From Thermoplasmatales archaeon (GTDB lineage: Archaea > Thermoplasmatota > E2 > DHVEG-1): a stretch of DNA of 64,000 nt. Of this stretch, positions 9,358 through 55,701 are shown one piece after another (within the stretch, counting starts at the first letter, position 1; every line of letters starts with the position of its first letter). The position numbers and the translations under genes are program-made. Below the pieces are notes generated by a model. It worked only from the letters and a program-made list of their open reading frames with translations. It searched no databases and was not told the origin of the DNA. The stretch is taken from the NCBI GenBank assembly GCA_030672305.1, contig DAOVGR010000039.1, positions 2,651 to 66,650 on the forward strand, read 5' to 3'.

Positions 9358-10824
9358 ATGAAAAACTTCCATGTTGCAATTATTGGAGCAGGTGTAATTG
9401 GCTCATCAATTGCATGGGAGTTATCAAAATATAAGCTAGATGTTGTTGTTTTTGAGAAAGGAAGTGACGTTGCTACAGGTACAAGTAAAGCTAATAGTGG
9501 TGTTATTCATAGTGGAATTAATTCTCCATCATCTTCCTTAAAAGCTCGTTTTTGTGTTGAAGGCAACAAGATGCTTCAACCATTGGCAGATTCATTAGGT
9601 TTTTCACTTAAATGGGTTGGAAAATTTGTAATTGCAAAAAATGAAGATGAAGCAAAAGAACTTAATCAAATTAAAAAAGTTGGTCAAGAGAATGGAGTTC
9701 CTGGTTTAGAAATTAAAGATGAGAAAGATGTTAAAGCACTAGAGCCTAATGTACCATGCTACAAGGCTTTATGGGTACCAACTGCAGGCATAATTTTACC
9801 ATATGAATTTACTATAGCATTTGCTGAAAACGCTGCTATTAATAATGTTAATTTTTTACTTGAAACAGAGGTTATGGACCTACAAAAAAAAGAAAATAAT
9901 TTTGTAATAAAAACTAACAAGGGAAAATTTCAGTCAAAAATATTAGTAAATGCAGCAGGATTAAATTGCAGAGAGATAGTATCAATGTTACAAGAACCAG
10001 ATTTTAATGTTCATCCTTGTAGGGGAGAGTATCTTGTTTTAGATAAAGCCTATAGCCATCTAGTAAAATCTATGATTTATCCTATTCCTCCAAAAGAACT
10101 AGGAGTTTTAGGTGTTCATATAACACCAACAATTGAAGGTAATATCCTTCTTGGCCCAAGTGCTGAGTTTATTAATGACTCTGATGAAAAAAGAACAACA
10201 TTAAAAATGATGAAAACCTTGCTAAGAGAAGCAAAAGATATTATTCCAATATTTCCTGAAAAGGCAGTTATAAATGCTTATTCAGGAATTAGGTGTAAAC
10301 TTGCCTCACCAAATGAGGGAGGATGGACAGATTACATAATTGAAGAAAGCAAACAAACACCTGATTTGATAAACCTTTTAGGGATTGAATCCCCTGGTCT
10401 AACTGCTGCCCCAGCTGTTTCAAAAGAAGTAGTCAAAATGATTTCAAAGTCTATTAAGATGAAGACTAAAACTGATTTTAAAACTAAAAAAATTAAAAAT
10501 AACCGTTTTTCTGAAATGAGTTCAAAGGAAAAATCTGATTTAATTAAAAAAGACCAAAGATGGGGAAGGGTTGTTTGCAGATGTGAACATATTACAGAAG
10601 CTGAAATATTCAACGCTTTATCTAATCCTTTAAAATCACAAACCCTCTCATCTGTTAAGTACCGTTGTAGAGCTGGAATGGGAAGATGTCAGGGGGGATT
10701 TTGCACTCAACATATTGTAAGAATTATGGGAGAAGATTTTAATATCGATGTTAAAAAAATGAAATTAAAATCTTCTAATTCTAATCTTTTTTATGGTAAA
10801 ACACGGGAGATTGACAATGATTAA
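9358..10824 (+). CDS. FAD-dependent dehydrogenase, GlpA-like, with C-terminal BFD-type [2Fe-2S] domain
   Basis: FAD fingerprint VAIIGAGVIGSSIAWEL. C-terminal CRCEHITEAEI...CRAGMGRCQGGFC. The ATG at 9358 is preceded by GGAAGG (the track ORF starts at a TTG at 9340). Size resembles the archaeal/Thermotoga-type anaerobic G3P dehydrogenase large subunit. Confidence 0.75.
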   Translation: MKNFHVAIIGAGVIGSSIAWELSKYKLDVVVFEKGSDVATGTSKANSGVIHSGINSPSSSLKARFCVEGNKMLQPLADSLGFSLKWVGKFVIAKNEDEAKELNQIKKVGQENGVPGLEIKDEKDVKALEPNVPCYKALWVPTAGIILPYEFTIAFAENAAINNVNFLLETEVMDLQKKENNFVIKTNKGKFQSKILVNAAGLNCREIVSMLQEPDFNVHPCRGEYLVLDKAYSHLVKSMIYPIPPKELGVLGVHITPTIEGNILLGPSAEFINDSDEKRTTLKMMKTLLREAKDIIPIFPEKAVINAYSGIRCKLASPNEGGWTDYIIEESKQTPDLINLLGIESPGLTAAPAVSKEVVKMISKSIKMKTKTDFKTKKIKNNRFSEMSSKEKSDLIKKDQRWGRVVCRCEHITEAEIFNALSNPLKSQTLSSVKYRCRAGMGRCQGGFCTQHIVRIMGEDFNIDVKKMKLKSSNSNLFYGKTREIDND

Positions 10825-20656: not shown

Positions 20657-24824
<4,168 letters not shown>

Positions 24825-24825
<1 letters not shown>

Positions 24826-26099
24826 TATTTCCCCCCTAAAGCCATATCAACAATACGAGTCATATGGGTTTCAGGGCCATATACATCGATTGGTACACCA
24901 AGCTCTTTACCAAGGTCTTTCATTATTCTTAATCCCTCTTGGTAGTTAGGTCCTCCACGTCGAACATAAATCTTTACATCTGTATCTTTTAGTTTTTTCT
25001 TATAATCACGCAGTGCCATTGTAATACCAGTAAAGGTTTTAGCAACATCTGTAAAGTTTGCAATACCTCCACCAACAAGTAAAAACTTTGGTCGACCCTT
25101 TGGGTCTTTTTCACGTGTCATCAAATCAAGAATAGTTTTTGCATATTCATATGTCAAATCAGTTGTTGGATTACCACTGTATTCACCATAATTTGCAAGC
25201 TCATCACGATATCCAAGATCAACAATTGTATCAGTATAAATAACACTGCCTCCACCACCAGCGACCATTGTCCAAACTCGACCTTTTGGATTGAGAACAG
25301 TAAGCTTGAGTGATGCACCACTTTTCTCATCCATTGTTTTAACATATTTTTCTTCTTTTGAAAGTTTTCTTCCAAATGGTGCTGGAAATGGCAGATCTCC
25401 CCATTTCGTACTATATTCAAAATGAGCAGTATCATCAATTCGAGCAACTAAATCAAGCGGTACAAGATTTTTACCTGTTACAACAAATGGATTTATTTCC
25501 AAATATGCATATCCAAGTTCGCGATAGAAATTAAATAATCCTTTAATAAATTCTGCAAACATTTTTTTATGCTCGTTTGGAGTATCTTTTGGTAATTTAC
25601 TTACGATATTGATTTTATTGATATCTTCTTCAATTGGAACTAGAATTTCTGCAACTGTTTTCCAAACCGACTCAATATCAACTCCACCATGATTTGAAAA
25701 ATAAATTGTGTCTCCATCACGGTTACTTTTTATTGCAATATAGAACTCACCTTTGTGTGGAACAAATGGTTCTATTATGAAATGAGTCAATTTATCTTTT
25801 ACTTTACCTACAGTTGTATCTTTGTTCAGCCGCTCTTTAATCCATTTTTTTGCTTCTGCGAAAGATGCATTTGCCTTTATTAAACCATGCTTACCTCGTT
25901 TCCCAAATAATTGATCTGGTTTTACAACAAGCTTTTCTTCATTTAGCCATTTATGTTTCTTTGGCAGATCATCCAGTTTTGTATTTGGATTAACAAGGAC
26001 AATTTTTCCTGGGTAACTAAAGCTCTTTCCAAAATACTCAGTCCAGTATTTTGCAAGCATTTTTTTCCCATTATATTCTCTTATTCCTCTCTGTGCCAT
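24825..26099 (-). CDS. aclB: ATP-citrate lyase beta subunit (ATP-grasp)
   Basis: 424 aa. MAQRGIREYNGKKMLAKYW...KPDQLFGKRGKHGL matches the ACL N-terminal ATP-grasp part. Translationally coupled to aclA. Confidence 0.88.
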
Positions 26100-26118
26100 T
26101 TTTTATCTACCTCTTTTT

Positions 26119-28065
26119 TTAAGCTTTATTTTTCATATATGCAAGTGTACCACCTGCAAGTATAATCTCACGTTGTCTATCTGAGAGATTATAATCCACC
26201 TCAAACTCTAATTCTTTTGAGGTGTTCTTGACCTTCAAATTTTCTCCGTTTTTGATTACATTTTTAATATTTGGTATTTCAAGATCATCTCCCTGTTCAA
26301 TTTTATTATAATCACTTTCATTTTTGAATGTCAAAGGAATAATACCAAAATTAATCAAATTTGCAGTATGAATTCTTTCAAATGATTTAGCTATCACTGC
26401 TTTTGTCCCCATAAACATTGGACAAAGCGCTGCATGTTCTCTAGAAGAGCCTTGGCCATAGCTAAGACCTGCGATAAAGATATTTGATTTTCCGCTGTCA
26501 CGTATTTTTTTTGCTCGTTCATAGAAATTCGAATCCACTACTTCAAACAAAAATTCCGAATACTTTGGAACATTTGATCTATATTTCATTTTGCTTCCAG
26601 CAGGAATTATATGATCTGTTGTGATTTGATCTTCTACTTTAATTGTTACTTCGCCAGTAATTGAATCAGGCATTGGTAATGCTGCTGGAGGATCACCGAT
26701 ATTTGGTCCACGATTAATCTTGATATTTTCGGGGTGTTCCGTCGGATAAATAAACATGCTATCATCGATATAGAATGATTCAGGCATCTGAACATTTGGA
26801 TATTTAATACCTCTTTTCTCGAGATCACGTGGATCTGTCATTTTACCTGTGATTACCGCTGCTGCTGCTGTTTCTGGACTAACAAGATATGCTTGTGCAC
26901 TTTTTGTTCCTGATCTTCCTAAAAAATTTCTATTACTCGTTCGTAATGATACTGCTTCGGTTTTTGGTGATTGACTGTTACCAATACAAAAGCCGCATGC
27001 TGATTCAGCAATTCTTGCACCAGCCCCAATAAGATCTGTAAGTCCACCGTCTCGTGTAATGTTTTCAAGAACCTGTTTTGAACCCGGTGCTATTACAAAG
27101 CTGACATTTGGATGAGCTTTCTTACCTTTTAAGATATTTGCCACAGTCATAAGATCCTTATAAGAAGAATTTGTACAACTACCAAGGCATACCTGATCTA
27201 CTTCCATTCCTTCTAGTTCCTTAACAGTTTTTATGTTACCCGGGCTGTGTGGATATGCTGTTAGAGGTACAATTTCACTTAAATCAAGATCAATTACTTT
27301 TTCATATTCAGCATCAGAATCTGCATTAAGTTCTGACCAATCTTTCTCACGATCTTGAGCTTTTAGAAATGCTCTTGTCGTTTCATCACTTGGAAAAACA
27401 GAAGTTGTAACACCGCATTCTGCACCCATGTTTGTAATAGTTGCTCGTTCGGGAACAGATAGTGTTTTAACTCCATCTCCAGCATATTCAAAAACACAAC
27501 CAACATTTCCTTTTGTTGTAAAAATCTCAAGCATCTTTAGAACGACATCTTTTGCAGCACACCATGGTTTGAGTTTACCTCTAAGATTAACTTTTATGAC
27601 CTTTGGGCATGTTAGATAAAAGGAACCACCTGCCATTGCAACAGCAACATCAAGACCTCCAGCTCCTATTGCAACCATTCCGATTCCACCGCCAGTTGGA
27701 GTATGGGAATCAGAACCAAGAAGGGTTTTACCTGGTCTTCCAAAACGCTCTAAATGTACCTGATGACAGATACCATTACCTGCACGTGAATAGATAATTC
27801 CATATTTTGTCGCTACACTCTGTAAATATTTATGATCATCAGCATTTTCAAAACCAATCTGAACAGTATTATGGTCAACATAGCTTACAGATAACTCTGT
27901 CTTAACTTTAGGAGCACCCATGGCTTCAAACTGAAGATATGCCATAGTACCTGTTGCATCTTGAGTTAATGTCTGATCAATCTTAATAGCAATTTCTTTT
28001 CCAGGTTCCCATTTACCTTCAACTATATGTTTTTCTAATATCTTTTGAACTATTCCTTTTCCCAT
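26119..28065 (-). CDS. acn: aconitate hydratase (short, Aquifex-type)
   Basis: 648 aa. Aconitase Fe-S ligand blocks are present (DSHT, LGSCTNSS, CGFCIGN), followed by a swivel domain at the C-terminus. Confidence 0.88.
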   Translation of the reverse strand: MGKGIVQKILEKHIVEGKWEPGKEIAIKIDQTLTQDATGTMAYLQFEAMGAPKVKTELSVSYVDHNTVQIGFENADDHKYLQSVATKYGIIYSRAGNGICHQVHLERFGRPGKTLLGSDSHTPTGGGIGMVAIGAGGLDVAVAMAGGSFYLTCPKVIKVNLRGKLKPWCAAKDVVLKMLEIFTTKGNVGCVFEYAGDGVKTLSVPERATITNMGAECGVTTSVFPSDETTRAFLKAQDREKDWSELNADSDAEYEKVIDLDLSEIVPLTAYPHSPGNIKTVKELEGMEVDQVCLGSCTNSSYKDLMTVANILKGKKAHPNVSFVIAPGSKQVLENITRDGGLTDLIGAGARIAESACGFCIGNSQSPKTEAVSLRTSNRNFLGRSGTKSAQAYLVSPETAAAAVITGKMTDPRDLEKRGIKYPNVQMPESFYIDDSMFIYPTEHPENIKINRGPNIGDPPAALPMPDSITGEVTIKVEDQITTDHIIPAGSKMKYRSNVPKYSEFLFEVVDSNFYERAKKIRDSGKSNIFIAGLSYGQGSSREHAALCPMFMGTKAVIAKSFERIHTANLINFGIIPLTFKNESDYNKIEQGDDLEIPNIKNVIKNGENLKVKNTSKELEFEVDYNLSDRQREIILAGGTLAYMKNKA

Positions 28066-31084: not shown

Positions 31085-31945
31085 ATGGATTTCGAAGACA
31101 TGAAAAGTGGTATAATTAATCTTATAAAAAAAGCAGAAACTGAACTACCAAATGATGTAATTAATGCTTTAAAAAATGCACTTGAAATTGAGGATGGTAT
31201 TGCAAAAACTCAGATAGAGGCAATTCTTAAAAATATAGATCTTGCAAAAAAAACAAAGCGTCCTATGTGTCAAGACACTGGAATTCAGACTTTTTTTGTA
31301 AATGTTGGAGTAGATTTTCCACAAATTAACAAATTAAAAGATTTAATTACAGATGCCGTTAAAAAAGCAACTAAAGATGTTCCACTTCGTCCTAATACCG
31401 TAGATCCTTTTACAGGTGAGAATCATAAAGACAATACGGGTAATCAAATTCCATATATTACTTGGGAGTTTATTGAAGGAAATGATGTTTATATCACAGC
31501 TTTTCCTAAAGGTGGTGGAAGTGAAAATATGAGTAAACTAGGGATGCTTAAACCTGGTGTAGGTATTGAAGGTGTTAAGAATTTTATTGTTGAGGAAATG
31601 ATTAAAGCTGCTGGCAATCCATGCCCACCAACAGTAGTTGGTGTAGGAATTGGGGGTGGAGCAGACCTATCAATGAAACTAGGTAAAAAAGCTCTTTTAA
31701 GACCAGTTGGAGAACGTCATAATGATAAAGCGATTGCTGCAATTGAAGAGGAATTAATTAACCGAATAAATGATAGTGGCATTGGTCCGATGGGTCTTGG
31801 TGGAAAAACAACTGTTTTAGATGTCCATATTGAAAAAGCACATAGGCATCCTGCAAGTCTTCCTGTTGGAATCGCTGTACAATGTTGGGCAGATAGAAGA
31901 GCACAAATGGTAATTCATTCTGATGGAAGCTGGGTGGTGAAATAA
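31085..31945 (+). CDS. class I (Fe-S) fumarate hydratase / tartrate dehydratase alpha subunit
   Basis: PMCQDTGIQ motif and 286 aa, immediately followed by the beta subunit. Confidence 0.85.
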   Translation: MDFEDMKSGIINLIKKAETELPNDVINALKNALEIEDGIAKTQIEAILKNIDLAKKTKRPMCQDTGIQTFFVNVGVDFPQINKLKDLITDAVKKATKDVPLRPNTVDPFTGENHKDNTGNQIPYITWEFIEGNDVYITAFPKGGGSENMSKLGMLKPGVGIEGVKNFIVEEMIKAAGNPCPPTVVGVGIGGGADLSMKLGKKALLRPVGERHNDKAIAAIEEELINRINDSGIGPMGLGGKTTVLDVHIEKAHRHPASLPVGIAVQCWADRRAQMVIHSDGSWVVK

Positions 31946-32494
31946 ATGGAGTATCATCTAAAATTACCAGCAAGCAAAGATGAAATTAAAAAATTTAAAA
32001 TTAGTGATATTATTTTTGTTACTGGGAAAATATTCACAGCTCGAGATGAGGCACATCATATGATGCTTGAAAAAGGAAAAAATGCCCTTCCGTTTGATCC
32101 GTCTGAAATGGCATTGTTTCATTGTGGCCCTCTTATGAAAAAAGAAAAAAATAAATGGAAGGTCTTATCAGCTGGTCCTACAACAAGCAGTCGTATGGAG
32201 ATTTTTGAGGATAAATTCATTGAAAATTTTGGAATAAATGTCATTATTGGTAAAGGTGGTATGGGTGAAAGAACTGAAAAAGCACTTCAGAAATTTGTTG
32301 GTGTATATACTGCGTACACTGGTGGTGCAGGTGCACTTGCTGCAGATAAAGTAGAAGAAGTTTTAGGTGTTTACTGGCTTGAAGAACTTGGTATGCCAGA
32401 AGCTGCTTGGATATTTAAGGTAAAGGAATTTGGACCACTTGTTGTAGCAATAGATTCACATGGAAAATCAATATATAGAGAACTGAAAAAATAG
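31946..32494 (+). CDS. class I fumarate hydratase / tartrate dehydratase beta subunit
   Basis: GKIFTARDEAH and GPTTSSRM motifs; 182 aa. The start abuts the alpha-subunit stop. Confidence 0.85.
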   Translation: MEYHLKLPASKDEIKKFKISDIIFVTGKIFTARDEAHHMMLEKGKNALPFDPSEMALFHCGPLMKKEKNKWKVLSAGPTTSSRMEIFEDKFIENFGINVIIGKGGMGERTEKALQKFVGVYTAYTGGAGALAADKVEEVLGVYWLEELGMPEAAWIFKVKEFGPLVVAIDSHGKSIYRELKK

Positions 32495-38979: not shown

Positions 38980-40268
38980 GAGACTCCCGTCTATTTTTAG
39001 ACAGTGCACATCCCTTTTATAGGACATGCACTGTTTTGCATGTTTGAATCATTACATGCAAAAAGGGATGGTCTCTCAGTGTTTTAAATTTAATCCTCAA
39101 TTTACAGTTAAGGATATCTTTTTGGATAATCATAATTGGGATGTTTACAGACATAAGCATAAGGATGAACTCCGGCAGGTTGAGATTGAGGAAGTTGAGA
39201 AGATGTTGTTGTGTAAGGATGGTAGCCGTGGTTTTTTTGTGTATTATTGCCCATGTTGTGATGAATCTCGTATTGTGTATTTTGGTTGTAATAGTCGTTT
39301 GTGTTCCTGTTGCGGGAAGAATTATACGGATAAATGGTCAAAGTCGTTGAAAAAGGCGTTGTTTGATGTTACTCATCGTCATTTGGTGATGAGTGTTCCT
39401 GATTCATTGTGGCCGGTGATCAGGAGTCATCGTGAGTTGTTGAAGGTGTTGATGGATGCGGCTATTGCTGCTATTAATGATACATTGTCTTATTTTCTTC
39501 GAAGGGATGTAAGAGCTGGCGTGGTTGCGGTGCTTCATCCGTTTTCACGGGATCTTTCTTTTAAACCGCATCTTCATGTATTGGTAACGGAGGGTGGTTT
39601 TGATAAAAAAGGTCGTTTTGTTCCAAAGAAGTTCATTCCTGCAAAAGCGATGAGGAAAACCTGGCAATATCAGGTTCTCACCCGGTTTAAACAAGTACTT
39701 CCAAAAACAAAAAGTTATAGTGTGTTTATTGACTGTTTTTTCAAACGATATCCAGAGGGTTTTTATGTGCGTCTTCCTAAGGAAAGCAGAATTACTTCAA
39801 AAAGGATGATTGGTAAGTATGTTGCCAGGTATGTCCGTCATCCTGCTATTGCAAACACTCGGATTTGTGGGTATGATGGAAGTAGTGTTACTTTTTGGTA
39901 TAAGGATAATGATGGCGTAAAGCATGTTGTCACTATGGGTGTGTTTCAGTTTATTGAAGCTTTGATTCAGCATATTCCAGATCGTCAATTCAAGATGATC
40001 CGTTATTATGGCGCATATGCTAGGAAATGGAAATCAAAATTCAGGTTTTATCTACAGGAAAGTATAACTCAGTCGAAATTGAGTGATTTTCCTAAAAAAA
40101 GTGGTGTTAGATGCCCTATTTGCTATAATTTTATGGAATTTGTAATGTATTGGAAGAAAGGGCCACCTTTAAAAAGTGTATTTGGCAGTAAAATACATGA
40201 TTGGAACTACATTTCATCTAGTGTGGATGCTATTTAGGGGTTTTTAATTTGCCCGAAGGGCTTTCTTG
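38980..40268 (+). mobile_element. IS91-family (Y2 HUH, rolling-circle) insertion element; boundaries approximate
   Basis: The single transposase gene is visibly more G+C-rich than its flanks. The 5' flank has hairpins GTCTA-ttttt-TAGAC (38989..39002) and CAGTGCA-N18-TGCACTG (39002..39033). The 3' flank has hairpin GCCC-gaa-GGGC (40251..40261) followed by CTTG (40265..40268) and a T-run. Confidence 0.6.
39056..40237 (+). CDS. IS91-family transposase (zinc-binding N-terminus + Y2 HUH domain)
   Basis: Cys cluster YYCPCCDES...GCNSRLCSCCG, HUH motif KPHLHVLVTEGG, and tyrosine pair region MIRYYGAYARK. The track start at 39026 lies inside a hairpin, so the ATG at 39056 is preferred. Confidence 0.8.
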   Translation: MQKGMVSQCFKFNPQFTVKDIFLDNHNWDVYRHKHKDELRQVEIEEVEKMLLCKDGSRGFFVYYCPCCDESRIVYFGCNSRLCSCCGKNYTDKWSKSLKKALFDVTHRHLVMSVPDSLWPVIRSHRELLKVLMDAAIAAINDTLSYFLRRDVRAGVVAVLHPFSRDLSFKPHLHVLVTEGGFDKKGRFVPKKFIPAKAMRKTWQYQVLTRFKQVLPKTKSYSVFIDCFFKRYPEGFYVRLPKESRITSKRMIGKYVARYVRHPAIANTRICGYDGSSVTFWYKDNDGVKHVVTMGVFQFIEALIQHIPDRQFKMIRYYGAYARKWKSKFRFYLQESITQSKLSDFPKKSGVRCPICYNFMEFVMYWKKGPPLKSVFGSKIHDWNYISSSVDAI

Positions 40269-49303: not shown

Positions 49304-49923
49304 ATATTGAGCGAGATTTTTTAGAAGGTAAAAAAAGTGCAATTACAAAGCTTAAAAAAGCTCAGAAAGAAAATAAAGTAGATAGAGGAATTCAACCTAT
49401 TTTAGATATAATAAATGAATCTGATGATTATTATACCTCAAGTAGCTGTTATGGTAGAATAGTTATTCTTGAAATCCCAAATATTGGTAATAAAAAAGAA
49501 GCAAAATTTTTAGGTAAGTGGCACCGAACAATAGATGTTGATGAAGTATTCTCTGCTGTAAAAAAGGCAAAAATTGGTCAGATTTGGTTTCTTTCACAGT
49601 CTCCAATAATTCATATTACTGCAAAAACAAATGAAGCTGCAAATAGACTAATGAAAACAGCGGTTGCATGTGGTTTTAAAAACTCGGGATTAAAGTCTTT
49701 TGGAAGAAAGATTGTTGTTGAAATATGCAGCACAGAAAGACTTGATGTACCTATTGGTAATAATTGTATTTTGTTTAGTAATACAAAACATCTAGAGCTA
49801 TTGACAAATATTTCAAATGAGATTTTTAATAAATCAACTAAAAAAATGCAGAAATTAGAAAAGGAATTAAAGATACAGGTCAGCCGTATGAAGTTAATAG
49901 GATTTCAGGCCCATGTTCTATAA
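49300..49923 (+). CDS. taw3: tRNA wybutosine-synthesizing protein 3 (Taw3/TYW3-like), 3' end replaced by IS insertion
   Basis: The DYYTSSSCYGRIVIL block is typical of TYW3. From codon VSRMKLIGFQAHVL* onward the ORF reads into the IS66-family element that begins at 49872. Confidence 0.75.
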   Translation: MNIERDFLEGKKSAITKLKKAQKENKVDRGIQPILDIINESDDYYTSSSCYGRIVILEIPNIGNKKEAKFLGKWHRTIDVDEVFSAVKKAKIGQIWFLSQSPIIHITAKTNEAANRLMKTAVACGFKNSGLKSFGRKIVVEICSTERLDVPIGNNCILFSNTKHLELLTNISNEIFNKSTKKMQKLEKELKIQVSRMKLIGFQAHVL

Positions 49924-51301
49924 GATTTTGCCCGTTTTGATGAAGTGTTTGACTCACGCTGAGAAGTATTTCGTAATTTTTTGAACCCTTTGTTGATCTA
50001 TTTCCACCGCTTATTTTTCTAGCAGTTACAGGGGGTCGGAGTGCTCGCTCTGCAGCATTGTTTGTACCATCTACATGTGGGTTTTTTACAAACTCGAAGA
50101 GATTATCCTTCTCCTTTAGGAGATTTACAACAAATTTATGGCAATGTTGCGACTTGTATGGGATGTCCAGTTCGTCTTTCATATTTTGAAATAGTTGTTC
50201 AATATCTTTATCTGTTCCTTTGTGGTCATAGGCTTTTGCAGATTCATAGATTCTCTTTACTACTTGATGGATATACTTTCCTTCCGCCCTATAGAAGTGA
50301 GCGAGTTCTTCCGCGTTGTTGGTAATATGTGTCCAACAATCTTGTTGAGGGTTCTTTGTCTTCTTTGCCAGTGTTTTATACGCTGAGAAACGATCATGAA
50401 CATCAACACCCTCATGGTTTTTCCCTAATAGTTTCAATGGAACCTTATGACCACGTGAACATGCAATTTTATACAAGGTGATTCCCTTTGAGACAAATGT
50501 CCAAAGATTTGCATTTTCACCATTGATACGCCAACTGGTCTCATCGATATTTCTTGATGGTTCCTTACGAATATTGTACATCAACTGCTGATAATATGGA
50601 CCAAATGCACGTGCAACCTGATCTAGGATATGAATTACTTCGCCCTCACATATTTTCAACCCAAACAACCGGTTAAAAACTTCAGGAATTGCTTCTTCTG
50701 TCATCCTGAGTTTAATTTTAAACCAAACAACAATGAGCATAACACGGAGACTAAGACGAGCACCTGGAAGTACCCATGTTACTGGTGCTTCAACAAGTTT
50801 CTTACAGGTTCTGCAATAACGTCGTTCTATCTCCAATTGGATGGCAACAGGTTTACAAACAGGAATATCCTCATATGTCCGATTTCGTGTCTCCTGAACC
50901 TTCTCGCTCAAATCTGTACCGCCACACTCAGGACATACCATTACAGGTATACGACGAACTTCATCAATATGTTCTGGCATTGCACGGAAATAGGGTTTAT
51001 GACCCTTTTTTGCCCCAGGTTTCTTAGGTGTTTGTGACTTTGTAGATGATTTGTAGAAGTATGGCTTACCGTTTTTCACGCCTACAGTCCTTGGATGTCT
51101 CTTTTTATATTCCTCAAACTCTTCTTTTAGTCTCTTCAGTTCCTCTTTTAATTCTTTGTTTTCCTGTTCCAGTTTTTGGATATACTGTTTTACCTCATCT
51201 GGTAAACCTATCATCCCATCCATCAAACAATATAGTATGTAGAACTTCCAGAAGGATTTTTTGGTCCATCATATGTATGCTTCAGACCACTGACCTATAT
51301 C
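49872..51301 (-). mobile_element. IS66-family insertion sequence, single-ORF type, with 8-bp target site duplication
   Basis: Imperfect 22-nt terminal inverted repeats: GATACAGGTCAGCCGTATGAAG (49872..49893) versus the reverse complement of 51280..51301, GATATAGGTCAGTGGTCTGAAG (18/22 match). Direct repeats GAATTAAA at 49864..49871 and 51302..51309. More G+C-rich than the flanks. Confidence 0.85.
49880..51226 (-). CDS. IS66-family transposase
   Basis: 448 aa. N-terminal leucine-zipper-like coiled coil (QKLEQENKELKEELKRLKEEFEEYKK), zinc finger (CPECGG...CRTCKK), then a DDE-type catalytic region. Confidence 0.85.
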   Translation of the reverse strand: MMDGMIGLPDEVKQYIQKLEQENKELKEELKRLKEEFEEYKKRHPRTVGVKNGKPYFYKSSTKSQTPKKPGAKKGHKPYFRAMPEHIDEVRRIPVMVCPECGGTDLSEKVQETRNRTYEDIPVCKPVAIQLEIERRYCRTCKKLVEAPVTWVLPGARLSLRVMLIVVWFKIKLRMTEEAIPEVFNRLFGLKICEGEVIHILDQVARAFGPYYQQLMYNIRKEPSRNIDETSWRINGENANLWTFVSKGITLYKIACSRGHKVPLKLLGKNHEGVDVHDRFSAYKTLAKKTKNPQQDCWTHITNNAEELAHFYRAEGKYIHQVVKRIYESAKAYDHKGTDKDIEQLFQNMKDELDIPYKSQHCHKFVVNLLKEKDNLFEFVKNPHVDGTNNAAERALRPPVTARKISGGNRSTKGSKNYEILLSVSQTLHQNGQNLIEHGPEILLTSYG

Positions 51302-51996: not shown

Positions 51997-52138
51997 TATT
52001 TGTTCCCCACTACGCCTAGATTTTTGTAATTCTGCTTATAAAGTTCTTGTTGTACAACTGTTATCTGAAAAACTTTTATTCCGAATTATTTAAATCTATA
52101 TTGACTATTTACTGCTTCAAAATATGGGGGACAATAAT

Positions 52139-53224
52139 ATGGCAAAAAGGATTTACAATTTCTATGCAGGTCCTGCGACCTTACCACTTCCAGCGTTAAA
52201 GAAAGCACAAAAAGAGCTTTTGGATTTTCATGGAACTGGTATGTCTCTTATGGAGCTGTCTCACAGGTCAAAAGAATATGATGCAATGCATAAGGAAGCA
52301 TCAAGTTTGGTTAGAAGGTTAATGAAGATACCTGATGATTACAAAATATTATGGCTTCAGGGAGGTGCTTCAAGTCAGTTTTATATGGCTCCATTAAATC
52401 TACAAAAAGATGGCAAGTCGTTTGAATATGTAAACACGGGTGTCTGGTCAAAAAAGGCAATAAAAGAAGCAAAGTTCTATGGAGAGGTAAAGGTTGTTGC
52501 TAGTTCAGAAGATGAAAATTTCTCATATATTCCAAAAAATATAGATTTTAGTTCTGATGCAGCATTTGCACATATTACAGGAAATAACACAATCTATGGA
52601 ACTGAATTTCAAGAGTGGCCAGATGTTCCAGGTGATGTGCCCTTAGCCTGTGATATGTCTTCACATATTATGGACAAGGTAATAGATGTTAAGAAATTTG
52701 GTGTTATTTATGCTGGCGCTCAAAAAAACATCGGTCCTGCTGGAGTAACACTTTTAATAGTAAGGGAGGATTTATTAGAAAGAATTCCTGAGAATACACC
52801 AACCATGCAAAAATGGAAAACCCATGTTGAGAAAGACTCACTTTTTAACACCGGTCCATGTTGGGCAATTTATATTTGCAAACTATCACTTGGACATCTT
52901 GAAAGCATAGGTGGAGTTCCAGAAGTTGAAAAGATAAACCGAAAGAAAGCAAAGATATTATATGATTTAATTGACAATTCAAATGGTTTTTACAAAGGTC
53001 ATGCAAAACCAGATTCTAGATCACTTATGAATGTAACATTTAACCTTCCAACTCCAGAACTTGAAGAAAAATGTGTAAAAGAGGCACTTGAAAAAGACCT
53101 TGTTGGCTTAAAAGGCCACAGATCTGTTGGCGGCATGAGAGCATCAATTTATAATGCAATGCCAATAGAAGGAGTCAATACTCTAGCAGATTTCTTAAAG
53201 GAATTCCAGGAGAATAATCAGTAA
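52139..53224 (+). CDS. serC: phosphoserine aminotransferase
   Basis: N-terminal YNFYAGPATLP, with later GAQKNIGPAG and GGMRASIYNAMP blocks. Confidence 0.92.
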   Translation: MAKRIYNFYAGPATLPLPALKKAQKELLDFHGTGMSLMELSHRSKEYDAMHKEASSLVRRLMKIPDDYKILWLQGGASSQFYMAPLNLQKDGKSFEYVNTGVWSKKAIKEAKFYGEVKVVASSEDENFSYIPKNIDFSSDAAFAHITGNNTIYGTEFQEWPDVPGDVPLACDMSSHIMDKVIDVKKFGVIYAGAQKNIGPAGVTLLIVREDLLERIPENTPTMQKWKTHVEKDSLFNTGPCWAIYICKLSLGHLESIGGVPEVEKINRKKAKILYDLIDNSNGFYKGHAKPDSRSLMNVTFNLPTPELEEKCVKEALEKDLVGLKGHRSVGGMRASIYNAMPIEGVNTLADFLKEFQENNQ

Positions 53225-53301: not shown

Positions 53302-53360
53302 AATCATCAACAAAAAATGGCATGATACATAGTATCACAATAGAGGTTGAGGAGAGTAAT

Positions 53361-53750
53361 ATGAATAAAAAAATAATGATAGTTGATGATGAGCAGGACA
53401 TATTAACTTCATTAAAAACCGTTTTTAAACATCAAGATTATGATGTAATAACTGTTGATAATGGGGGGGATTGTATTACTGAACTTGAAAAAGGTTTCAA
53501 AGGTGTAATACTAGTGGACATTATGATGCCTGGAATGGATGGATGGCAGACTATTAGAGAGATAGTAAAAAAAGGTTTGATAAATAATGTAGCAATCGGA
53601 ATAATTACCGGAAAAGGAACAAAGAATCACCAGGACATGGATGGACTTTCTTGCTATATTTACGACTACTTTTCAAAACCGCTAAATATCAAAGAATTAG
53701 TTAGAAGTATAGACGGATGTCAAATATTTCTTAATGAAAGAGTTATCTAA
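53361..53750 (+). CDS. stand-alone response regulator receiver (CheY-like)
   Basis: IMIVDDEQD...VLVDIMMPGMDGW...ITGKG...KP. The ATG at 53361 is preceded by GGAGAG. Confidence 0.85.
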   Translation: MNKKIMIVDDEQDILTSLKTVFKHQDYDVITVDNGGDCITELEKGFKGVILVDIMMPGMDGWQTIREIVKKGLINNVAIGIITGKGTKNHQDMDGLSCYIYDYFSKPLNIKELVRSIDGCQIFLNERVI

Positions 53751-53984: not shown

Positions 53985-54679
53985 TTAAAAATCATCTAAT
54001 TTTTTCATATTTTTTTCTTTAAGTATTCTTTGTGAGGTTTTCCATGAGCGTCTTGTGTGAGGAGGTAACTTACCAAATCTATCAAACCATGTTTTGAAAA
54101 ATTTTTGTGTAATTGGGTCAGCTGGATATCCGCTGCCTAAGGGTAAATTTAATTTTTTTTCGAGTGTGTTAGCGATTTTTTCAATTTCTTCTTCTCTTCT
54201 TGATTTAGCGAGTATTGAAGCAGCACTTACAACTGGATATATCTCATCTGCCTTATGTTCTGATATAATTGTAGCCTTGAAAGGAATTGCTTCAGAAATA
54301 TTTCTACCAAAGCGTTTTTCGTTTACATCTACTGAATCAACATAACAAATCTCTGGTTTTAATTTTGTAATTATATTAATAAATGCATTTACTTCTATCT
54401 GATTTAACGTCATAATTTTACGCATATCATCGATATCTGTGGCAGGAATTACAAGGATTTCATAGTTAATCGCTATTTCCTTTATTTTTATGTCTAATTC
54501 TTCTCGTCTTGTAGGTGATAGTTGTTTCGAATCTTTCACCCTGTACTCTATTAATTTTGAATCATCTTCAAATGTAACACCGGCAATTATTAGAGGGCCG
54601 ATGACTGGACCTTTAGGCAAATAGGAATCATTTTTTTATGCCCCTATTTTCTACCCGCTTCATCGACTCCACAAATCAT
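53985..54679 (-). CDS. rnhB: ribonuclease HII, coding sequence interrupted by a 38-nt BHB-type intervening sequence
   Basis: Exon 1 (54679..54651) encodes MICGVDEAGR(1st two nt of the R codon). Exon 2 (54612..53985) continues GPVIGPLIIAGV.... Joined, they give a 218-aa colinear RNase HII with the DEAGRGPVIGP motif. The unspliced reading hits TAG at 54646..54644. Confidence 0.8.
54613..54650 (-). other. candidate bulge-helix-bulge intron within rnhB mRNA
   Basis: Sense strand: central helix GGGU/GCCU (4 bp), 3-nt bulges AGA and AAA, and inner 7-bp helix AAAUAGG/CCUAUUU with a 17-nt loop. Cleavage after the second bulge nucleotide on each strand gives exactly the frame-restoring junction. Confidence 0.6.
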
Positions 54680-54765
54680 ACGTAACTTGTAATGATATTT
54701 AGTAAAAAGATGTTGCGGAATTGATAGACAATTTTTTATTATCTGATTTTATTCAAATGCAGTAT

Positions 54766-54838
54766 GCCGCTGTAGCTTAGCTGGTGGAGCGGCTGATTCG
54801 TAATCAGCAGGTCGAGGGTTCAAATCCCTCTGGCGGCT
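54766..54838 (+). tRNA. tRNA-Thr (anticodon CGU)
   Basis: GCCGCTGTAGCTTAGCTGGTGGAGCGGCTGATTCGTAATCAGCAGGTCGAGGGTTCAAATCCCTCTGGCGGCT. Anticodon stem GCTGA/TCAGC carries loop TTCGTAA. T arm is GAGGG-TTCAAAT-CCCTC. No CCA is encoded. Confidence 0.9.
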
Positions 54839-54962: not shown

Positions 54963-55331
54963 TTAATTCAAAATTTTTTTTACTCTGATAACAAGGTCTT
55001 TTATATCAAAAGGTTTAACAATATAATCAACAGCAGCAAGTCCACCCATACCAACACTCATGGTATCTCCTTTTGCTGTTAAAAAAACAATAGGAATGTC
55101 TTTCCATTTTGGATTCTCCTTAAGTTTTGCTGCAATATCCCAACCACTAATATTAGGCATCATTATGTCAAGAATTATAAGATCTGGATCAGTTTGTGAC
55201 TCATTCAGTTTATCGATACACTCATTACCATCTTTTGCTCTTATTACCTCAAAACCACTCAGCTCTAACATTTGGCCAACGGTTAATAAAATATCAGGCT
55301 CATCATCTACAACCAATATTTTTTTACTCAT
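54963..55331 (-). CDS. stand-alone response regulator receiver (CheY-like)
   Basis: ILVVDDEPD...IILDIMMPNISGW...LTAKG...KPF; 122 aa with no output domain. Confidence 0.85.
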   Translation of the reverse strand: MSKKILVVDDEPDILLTVGQMLELSGFEVIRAKDGNECIDKLNESQTDPDLIILDIMMPNISGWDIAAKLKENPKWKDIPIVFLTAKGDTMSVGMGGLAAVDYIVKPFDIKDLVIRVKKILN

Positions 55332-55701
55332 TTTCTTCAGTCTCTTGTAAAATTTTATCTATTCTATCAAGTAAAGAGTCTTTATCAAAAGGTTTCATTA
55401 TATAATCAGCAAGCCCCTCTTCTAGTAAAACTTGTTTTCTTTTATCAGATATTTCAAGAACACTCATAAATGCAACTTTAATATTCGTTGATTTCTTATT
55501 AATTCTATTAAATACATCCCAACCACTCATACCAGGCATCATAATATCAAGTAAAACAAGGTCTACTTTTTCCTTTTCTAGCTGTCTAAGGCACTCTTCA
55601 CCGCTATAAGCAGTAATAACTTCGTATCCTCCTAGTTCAAGAACAGTTCTAGTAAGATCAACAATATCTGGCTCATTATCAACAACCATTATTTTTTTCA
55701 T
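55324..55701 (-). CDS. stand-alone response regulator receiver (CheY-like)
   Basis: IMVVDNEPD...VLLDIMMPGMSGW...KPF; 125 aa. Overlaps the downstream receiver gene by 8 nt. Confidence 0.85.
   Translation of the reverse strand: MKKIMVVDNEPDIVDLTRTVLELGGYEVITAYSGEECLRQLEKEKVDLVLLDIMMPGMSGWDVFNRINKKSTNIKVAFMSVLEISDKRKQVLLEEGLADYIMKPFDKDSLLDRIDKILQETEENE

Follow-up and report, generated by a model that had tools for sequence, protein, structure and literature searches.

A predicted bulge-helix-bulge intron interrupts the RNase HII coding sequence in a clade of sediment Thermoplasmata

How can an archaeal genome provide a complete ribonuclease HII (RNase HII) when the longest open reading frame (ORF) for this enzyme lacks part of its active site? 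The question is raised by the rnhB gene in a 64,000-nucleotide (nt) stretch of DNA from a Thermoplasmatales archaeon (the window in what follows), which has a G+C content of 32% and whose nearest relatives are uncultured sediment Thermoplasmata/Thermoplasmatota. The longest RNase HII ORF, at 53985..54620 on the minus strand, starts with a TTG codon (MPKGPVIGPL) and specifies 211 residues without the conserved DEAGRG motif. The ATG at 54679 on the same strand opens the sequence MICGVDEAGRK in a different frame, which is then closed by a TAG codon at 54646..54644. Deletion of 38 nt (54650..54613) brings both parts together as 657 nt in one frame, encoding a 218-residue protein followed by a stop codon. 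Our proposal is that these 38 nt constitute a bulge-helix-bulge (BHB) intron in the rnhB pre-mRNA, to be removed by the archaeal splicing endonuclease, and we give this reading a probability of about 0.8. It is strongly supported by comparative sequence evidence, and every one of its predictions that could be tested at the sequence level came out as predicted. The same intron had been put forward in an earlier annotation made from the letters of the window (the sequence-only reading); its description of the long ORF without DEAGRG, including the coordinates, the TTG start and the MPKGPVIGPL beginning, and of the upstream ATG and the TAG that follows it, agreed with the sequence when we checked it.

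The 218-residue product expected after removal of the insert begins with MICGVDEAGRGPVIGPL, identical to the N-terminus of the intact relatives P0003, P0004 and P0006. It matches positions 1-198 of the 199 positions of the Pfam RNase_HII profile (E = 2e-47) and is colinear from residue 2 onwards with Thermococcus kodakarensis RNase HII (1io2 and mutants, IAGIDEAGRGPVIGP), which bears out the colinear enzyme that the sequence-only reading had derived from this deletion. Exon 1 would contribute MICGVDEAG and the first two bases of an Arg codon, and exon 2 the third base of this codon, a further 208 residues (GPVIGPL...KKLDDF) and the stop codon; the product is unchanged if the intron register is moved by one A (54649..54612). 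The Asp-Glu pair of DEAGRG, which we take to be the catalytic D7/E8 of the T. kodakarensis enzyme, is encoded in exon 1, and for this reason the 211-residue ORF alone cannot be an active enzyme. A search with an nhmmer profile of the intron found no second copy in the window or in more than 170 related loci, and there is thus no sign of a dispersed or mobile element. An Rfam scan of the window returned three tRNAs only, with no match for the insert.

The insert is not peculiar to this genome. We compared the 120 best protein matches and read the DNA of the insert in 11 distinct variants, one of them cut by a contig end, which came from independent assemblies in NCBI, JGI, ENA and Logan. Its signature is present in 19 of the 120 protein relatives, whose entries begin either with [ML]P[KR]GPVIGPL or with MKRVENRSIKK..., the latter being the same insert read through in another frame, and the remaining best relatives begin with MICG.DEAGRGP. 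In all 11 variants the insert occupies the identical site, between GCGGGTAG and AGG[T/A]CC, and the in-frame UAG is kept in every one of them, while the length takes values of 37, 38, 39, 40, 43 and 45 nt, covering all three residues modulo 3. An insert at the same site, in all three frames and with a UAG throughout, excludes an artefact, a translated insertion and a fixed ribosomal frameshift; the case for a programmed frameshift fails on the absence of any fixed frame relation, the insert length modulo 3 being 0, 1 or 2 among the relatives. That the window comes from a metagenome-assembled genome is the only point in favour of an assembly or sequencing error (the sequence-only reading had itself listed an assembly artefact among the possible refutations), and the 11 distinct variants, assembled independently, deposited in at least four repositories and differing by substitutions as well as in length, leave this explanation with practically no probability. 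The same reading had allowed for gene decay through unrelated disruptive mutations; what we found instead was the same single interruption in all carriers, with no other frameshifts or stop codons. Nearly all of the length variation is accounted for by the A-rich loop of the intron (54631..54638, and the homologous loops in L082-L172), which is a run of A6 to A12, sometimes with a U or G, and such differences in run length are typical of replication slippage.

A variable gap length would also be tolerated by translational bypassing of the phage T4 gene 60 type, in which the ribosome would take off before the UAG and land downstream, with no RNA processing at all. The stop codon soon after the break, the hairpin at the take-off region and the arrangement AAA UAG ... 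AAA GGU in the window, which could represent matched take-off and landing codons, are all compatible with such hopping. Across the relatives, however, the codon before the UAG is AAA, GAA or GAG and the landing triplet is AAA (AGA in L165), so that the match is not conserved, and use of the one conserved pair, Gly GGU to GGU/GGA, would cost the protein the Arg-Gly of its GRG motif. A hop between the AAA codons would, moreover, add a Lys to give DEAGRKGPV, whereas the intronless orthologues read DEAGRGPV. Since bypassing also leaves unexplained a BHB geometry with correctly placed cut sites (see below), we consider it very unlikely.

The sequence-only reading had proposed looking for presence/absence polymorphism in related rnhB loci, and this was found at exactly the predicted boundaries. 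The metagenome contig L171 is intronless, L172 and L173 have a 40-nt intron, and their flanks are about 95% identical; comparison of the promoter, exon 1 and exon 2 of these loci leaves a single clean gap of 40 nt, located exactly at the predicted splice sites. In a neighbour-joining tree of the exon-2 proteins, all carriers group in a single clade whose 36 members comprise 19 with the intron and 17 without it, and whose basal branches carry the intron. Bootstrapping recovered this clade 83 times out of 100, and between 5 and 10 presence/absence changes are required in every replicate. The simplest history to fit this distribution has a single gain, probably in the ancestor of this clade of sediment Thermoplasmata, followed by several precise losses; lateral spread between alleles may also have taken place. 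Either way, alleles that are about 95% identical with and without the intron provide a natural series for studying intron gain and precise loss.

The public gene calls for the intron-bearing rnhB genes give proteins of 211-227 residues that either lack DEAGRG or have a spurious N-terminus (MKRVENRSIKKYDSCLPK...). The entries concerned are P0001, P0002, P0010, P0012, P0019, P0023, P0028-31, P0034, P0035, P0043, P0045, P0046, P0055, P0067, P0071 and P0075, all affected by the same systematic error of annotation, which the intron causes. As a separate matter, an apparent frameshift in rnhB of another Thermoplasmatales genome (L053, 2472..2486) proved to be a stretch of masked N in the stored record, and was therefore ruled out as a second, different interruption of this gene.

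It could be argued that nothing is removed, and that the locus is either a pseudogene or encodes an N-terminally truncated protein of 211 residues starting at TTG 54620. The long ORF does stand on its own, and gene callers annotate exactly such proteins (P0001 and the 18 other entries listed above). This protein would nevertheless be without the Asp-Glu pair of DEAGRG, and yet exon 2 has a ratio of non-synonymous to synonymous substitution rates (dN/dS) of around 0.1 (0.08-0.19 between carriers, at dS values of 0.24-2.5), in the same range as in the intronless relatives. The ATG and the remainder of exon 1 have likewise stayed intact, as has the promoter block, and the pattern of substitutions is of the coding type: among ten variants, exon 1 differs at three sites only, two of them synonymous (ATT/ATA/ATC and GAA/GAG) and one exchanging Val for Ile (GTC/ATC). 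The mean pairwise difference per site is 0.046 in exon 1, 0.03 in the region from -60 to -22 upstream of the ATG and 0.09 in the arms of the intron, compared with 0.367 at codon position 3 of exon 2 and 0.375 in the 21-nt spacer that separates the upstream block from the ATG. The arms of this non-coding insert are thus constrained about four-fold relative to neutral-like sites, which speaks against a truncated protein or a pseudogene. Lastly, there is no Shine-Dalgarno-like sequence ahead of TTG 54620, and the start codon at this position is TTG or ATG, or is replaced by the read-through frame, depending on the relative. We conclude that an unprocessed gene of either kind is highly improbable and that, judging from these substitution patterns, the interrupted gene is under purifying selection as a whole, in its exons as well as in the arms of the intron.

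The conserved upstream block ends 21 nt before the exon-1 ATG and is present in both intron-bearing and intronless relatives. From this conservation we infer that it is the rnhB promoter. Because a TATA-like block is conserved 21 nt before the ATG and the 21-nt spacer itself is variable, the rnhB mRNA would be leaderless or near-leaderless, starting at the exon-1 ATG. A tRNA-Thr(CGU) gene (54766..54838, plus strand) is divergent from rnhB across an 86-nt spacer (54680..54765).

What in the RNA could mark the insert for removal? We tested on ten variants a structure consisting of a central helix, two 3-nt bulges, an inner helix of 11 base pairs (bp) and, on the outer side, a C-G pair plus a distal helix (Table 1). 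The GGGU/GCCU central helix and the AGA and AAA bulges of the sequence-only reading are present where it had placed them: the two 3-nt bulges lie on opposite strands, each of them 3' of its helix strand, with a 4-bp helix between them whose pairs (G.U, G-C, G-C and U.G) are invariant in 10 of 10 variants. The AAAUAGG/CCUAUUU inner helix is also there, but its length of 7 bp and the 17-nt loop given previously were wrong, as it really comprises 11 bp (nine contiguous pairs and two more beyond a bulged A54628), and the A-rich loop at its end has about 8 nt. The in-frame UAG sits inside this helix. Across the variants, 99.1% of its cells are paired; six of the 11 pairs vary, and of these six, five remain paired throughout and one is open in a single sequence. 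On the outer side, the previous description of a weak C-G and a relaxed form stands, but a strong distal helix between the exons had been overlooked. A single C54657-G54611 pair closes the 3' bulge and is followed by a 2x6 internal loop and then by an 8+2-bp exon-exon helix, which is predicted by both RNAfold and RNAalifold and has 10 of 10 pairs in all variants. All eight core pairs of this helix occur in only 10 of 142 intronless homologues, a comparison that is not phylogenetically independent.

Over the structure as a whole, 99.6% of the 260 cells pair, whereas controls with the 3' partners displaced by 1-3 columns reach 30-49%. The compensatory changes that the sequence-only reading had proposed as a check were seen at two pairs, both altered on both sides: 54649:54619 is A-U, G.U or G-C, and 54667:54597 changes from G-C to A-U in L167.

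The position of the cuts provides an additional constraint. In cbf5 introns, the RNA is cut between the second and third nucleotides of the bulge (PMC2738675), and the expectation that this rule would give the frame-restoring junction was confirmed: a cut after the second nucleotide of each bulge produces GCG GGU AG/A GGU, which encodes DEAGRG and is the same at the junction as the intronless orthologues. It is also the only register to do so, since the other registers obtained from the motif scan give products without DEAGRG. The motif alone is not significant, because the AT-rich window is full of chance BHB-like patterns (712-816 relaxed patterns per strand, versus about 600 in shuffled sequences). 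If the junction is specified in advance, as was done here by protein homology, the probability of finding the motif at that point by chance is about 1e-4 for an inner helix of at least 5 bp and about 3e-6 for one of at least 9 bp, as observed, and the comparative data are independent of this estimate. A window-wide BHB scan, alone or with a filter for restored ORFs, recovers the rnhB intron along with hundreds of chance hits, which makes it unusable for the detection of further introns without evidence from homology. One hit that we examined and rejected is a BHB-like structure with a perfect 8-bp hairpin at 10735..10777 (plus strand), between two adjacent FAD-oxidoreductase genes; its excision would fuse the two ORFs in frame, and chance or a hairpin between cistrons is the most likely explanation.

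In the pathway that we propose, transcription would start at or just before ATG 54679, as the promoter block suggests, and the first 85 nt or so would fold in such a way that GGGU of exon 1 pairs with GCCU at the 3' end of the intron, placing the splice sites in 3-nt bulges on opposite strands. This core would be flanked on the inside by the 11-bp intron hairpin and on the outside by the C-G pair, the internal loop and the 8-10-bp exon-exon helix. The splicing endonuclease EndA, expected from phylogeny to be of the homodimeric alpha'2 type in Thermoplasmata, would cut after the second nucleotide of each bulge, and the RtcB ligase would join ...GCG GGU AG to A GGU CCA..., restoring the Arg codon of DEAGRG and the 218-residue RNase HII. 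The junction in the spliced mRNA would read GCGGGTAG followed directly by AGGTCCAG, and the protein would contain the junction-spanning peptide DEAGRGPVIGPL. Circularisation of the intron, should RtcB perform this as well, would give a 38-nt circle closed at ...GCCUAA/AAAAUAGG, and unspliced RNA could give only the peptide MICGVDEAGRK. What the data show is the sequence, a fold able to adopt a BHB, the conservation of this fold and, from the intronless alleles, the exact boundaries; the cleavage, the ligation, the enzymes and the transcription start are what we infer from the DNA.

A number of observations weigh against a BHB intron processed in this manner. Near the junction, both RNAfold and RNAalifold favour a local UAG/CUA plus GG/CC pairing; relative to the minimum, the BHB conformer is 2.7-3.6 kcal/mol higher, and the central helix has an ensemble probability of about 0.33. 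The central helix and the bulges never vary, and covariation is consequently uninformative as to the choice between the BHB and this rival pairing. The helix directly outside the 3' bulge amounts to one C-G pair, making this a relaxed or bulge-helix-loop-like form. Among the members of the 90%-identity clusters, there was no spliced-transcript contig, no cluster mixing 211- and 218-residue proteins and no 218-residue twin of an intron-bearing gene. Placed only 29 nt into a probably leaderless mRNA, the intron would have to be spliced in competition with immediate translation. No EndA or RtcB was detected by Pfam in all 64 ORFs of the window of at least 110 residues, nor was there a tblastn match to the M. 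jannaschii EndA (query verified against 1a79) in the window and the related loci. To our knowledge, EndA and RtcB are universal in Archaea. The Cluster II Euryarchaeota, including Thermoplasmata, are reported to have only the alpha'2 homodimer (PMC5829648), and alpha'2 enzymes, such as that of T. acidophilum, have been classed as narrow in specificity (PMC6379350), which is a further point on the negative side. Homodimeric EndA, including that of Ferroplasma (Thermoplasmata), is nonetheless reported to cleave BHB and bulge-helix-loop motifs outside the tRNA context (Tocchini-Valentini, PMC8707768), and an enzyme able to capture the motif could plausibly act on the sub-optimal BHB conformer.

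Some of these same points, namely the weakness of the immediate outer helix, the thermodynamic preference for a local pairing that is not the BHB and the narrow specificity described for alpha'2 EndA (PMC6379350), would be accommodated if the insert were removed from the RNA by some other endonuclease-ligase pair or processing route that recognises the hairpin, with no part for EndA and RtcB. This would make a coincidence of the 3-4-3 bulge-helix-bulge spacing and the second-nucleotide cuts, which fit the junction exactly, and a self-splicing origin meets the difficulty that 38 nt are too few for a group I or II ribozyme and have no match in Rfam. We know of no other archaeal system, and of no archaeal precedent, for the precise excision and religation of about 40 nt, and we judge a route of this kind to be improbable, leaving the BHB intron as the reading that we prefer.

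Table 1. Predicted elements of the interrupted rnhB gene, with positions in the window.
Feature	Position	Strand	Description
Promoter-like block	54701..54724	-	TCAATTCCGCAACATCTTTTTACT; TATA-like TTTTTACT at 54708..54701; about 97% conserved
Exon 1	54651..54679	-	29 nt, ATG ATT TGT GGA GTC GAT GAA GCG GGT AG
Intron (predicted)	54613..54650	-	38 nt, AAAAUAGGGGCAUAAAAAAAUGAUUCCUAUUUGCCUAA; homologous 37-45-nt inserts at the same site in relatives
Exon 2	53985..54612	-	A/GGT CCA GTC ... to stop codon
Central helix, 5' strand	54653..54656	-	GGGU (exon 1); pairs with 54618..54615
Central helix, 3' strand	54615..54618	-	GCCU (intron)
5' bulge	54650..54652	-	AGA, invariant; predicted cut after G54651
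3' bulge	54612..54614	-	AAA (AGA in L165); predicted cut after A54613
Intron hairpin	54619..54649	-	inner helix 54649..54639 with 54630..54619; loop 54638..54631
Outer exon-exon helix, 5' strand	54660..54670	-	GG.GUCGAUGA; pairs with 54604..54595
Outer exon-exon helix, 3' strand	54595..54604	-	UCAUCGGCCC (exon 2)

As for the other genes of the window, rnhB is flanked by three stand-alone response-regulator receiver genes (53322..53750 on the plus strand, 54963..55331 and 55324..55701 on the minus strand), and the related contigs L161-L172 retain the synteny of these receiver genes with a class-V aminotransferase gene (52124..53224). There are two transposase genes (39026..40237, plus strand, and 49880..51226, minus strand), one IS91-like, with a Y2_Tnp and a zinc-binding domain, and the other an IS66-family gene; they have no link to the intron. 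Further away, a cluster of citric acid cycle genes (20657..28065 on the minus strand and 31085..32494 on the plus strand) encodes a monomeric isocitrate dehydrogenase, both ATP-citrate lyase subunits and aconitase, with a two-subunit fumarase nearby; this gene set, notable for a Thermoplasmata genome, hints at a capacity for the reductive citric acid cycle.

In the literature that could be searched, BHB introns in mRNAs have been reported only for crenarchaeal cbf5 and for the 5' untranslated region of Haloferax HVO_1309, as is said in so many words by Schwarz et al. (2020, PMC7714728), and endonuclease papers from 2019-2025 cite only the cbf5 work with regard to pre-mRNA. The statement in the sequence-only reading that BHB introns in coding genes are confined to cbf5 therefore holds in the searchable literature, the HVO_1309 case being in an untranslated region, and searches for RNase HII, Thermoprofundales or mRNA-intron BHB cases brought up nothing relevant there. 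It is accordingly a well-supported claim, as far as the searchable literature goes, that the predicted rnhB intron would be the second BHB intron in a coding sequence in Archaea and the first outside Crenarchaeota and cbf5. Similar introns are probably being missed elsewhere, because automatic annotation turns the interrupted genes into active-site-less proteins of 211-227 residues (19 of the 120 best relatives).

If the intron is real, gene interruption of the endonuclease type would not be a one-off. Archaea with a homodimeric, narrow-specificity endonuclease would be able to host and maintain introns in coding sequences, which would weaken the proposed tie between pre-mRNA introns and hetero-oligomeric, broad-specificity endonucleases, and reverse transcription, or else gene conversion from spliced mRNA, would be indicated in these populations by the repeated precise losses. 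As the central helix uses codons 8-9 of exon 1, the first translating ribosome would melt the splice motif; competition between splicing and translation initiation could then set the output of RNase HII, in a prokaryotic counterpart of HAC1/XBP1-type control. This wider scheme, in which the intron acts as a kinetic gate on RNase HII output, archaea with homodimeric EndA host coding introns and losses pass through reverse transcription or gene conversion, seems to us rather unlikely in its entirety.

The cbf5 pre-mRNA intron of Crenarchaeota, reportedly described by Watanabe in 2002 and by Yoshinari in 2006, resembles that predicted for rnhB in being a short non-coding insert in a protein-coding sequence, with a BHB-like and often relaxed fold at its borders and cuts between the second and third bulge nucleotides. 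In both cases the gene is broken at a catalytic motif, so that removal is required, and the intron is patchily distributed within a clade, a pattern that for cbf5 has been read as a gain followed by secondary precise losses (Yokobori 2009, PMC2738675). The two differ in the gene, a pseudouridine synthase in one case and RNase HII in the other, and in the lineage, Crenarchaeota (Desulfurococcales/Sulfolobales) versus Thermoplasmatota/Euryarchaeota. Splicing of cbf5 has been linked to a hetero-oligomeric endonuclease (PMC6379350, PMC5829648), whereas a homodimeric alpha'2 enzyme is expected in the host of the rnhB intron, which furthermore begins after only 29 nt of an mRNA that is probably leaderless and whose splicing is predicted from sequence. 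Membership of the cbf5 family, defined by the catalytic Asp codon of cbf5 and by occurrence in Crenarchaeota, does not extend to the rnhB intron, which is analogous to these introns.

Outside the Archaea, phage T4 gene 60 has a coding gap of about 40-50 nt, at the beginning of which lie a stop codon and a hairpin, as in rnhB, but rnhB is without a conserved take-off/landing pair that would give the orthologous protein. HAC1 and XBP1 also resemble what is proposed for rnhB, in that a protein endonuclease excises a small, frame-changing mRNA intron and a tRNA ligase, which in metazoa is RtcB, joins the ends; they differ in that IRE1, which is no homologue of EndA, recognises two stem-loops and not a BHB, and in that their splicing is a regulated stress switch. 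The analogy with rnhB is speculation. The BHB introns and processing stems of archaeal tRNAs and rRNAs share with rnhB the predicted motif of a 3-nt bulge, a 4-bp helix and a 3-nt bulge and, as proposed here, the enzymes EndA and RtcB, whereas the rnhB substrate would be an mRNA without a tRNA body, with an outer side made up of one pair, an internal loop and a distal 8-10-bp helix. Finally, in Haloferax volcanii the HVO_1309 mRNA (PMC7714728) is processed at a BHB by a splicing endonuclease of the alpha'2 type, as is proposed for rnhB, likewise a euryarchaeal mRNA, and this case shows that enzymes of this type do act on mRNAs; its intron lies in an untranslated leader and leaves the reading frame uninterrupted, whereas that of rnhB would split a coding sequence and its active-site motif.

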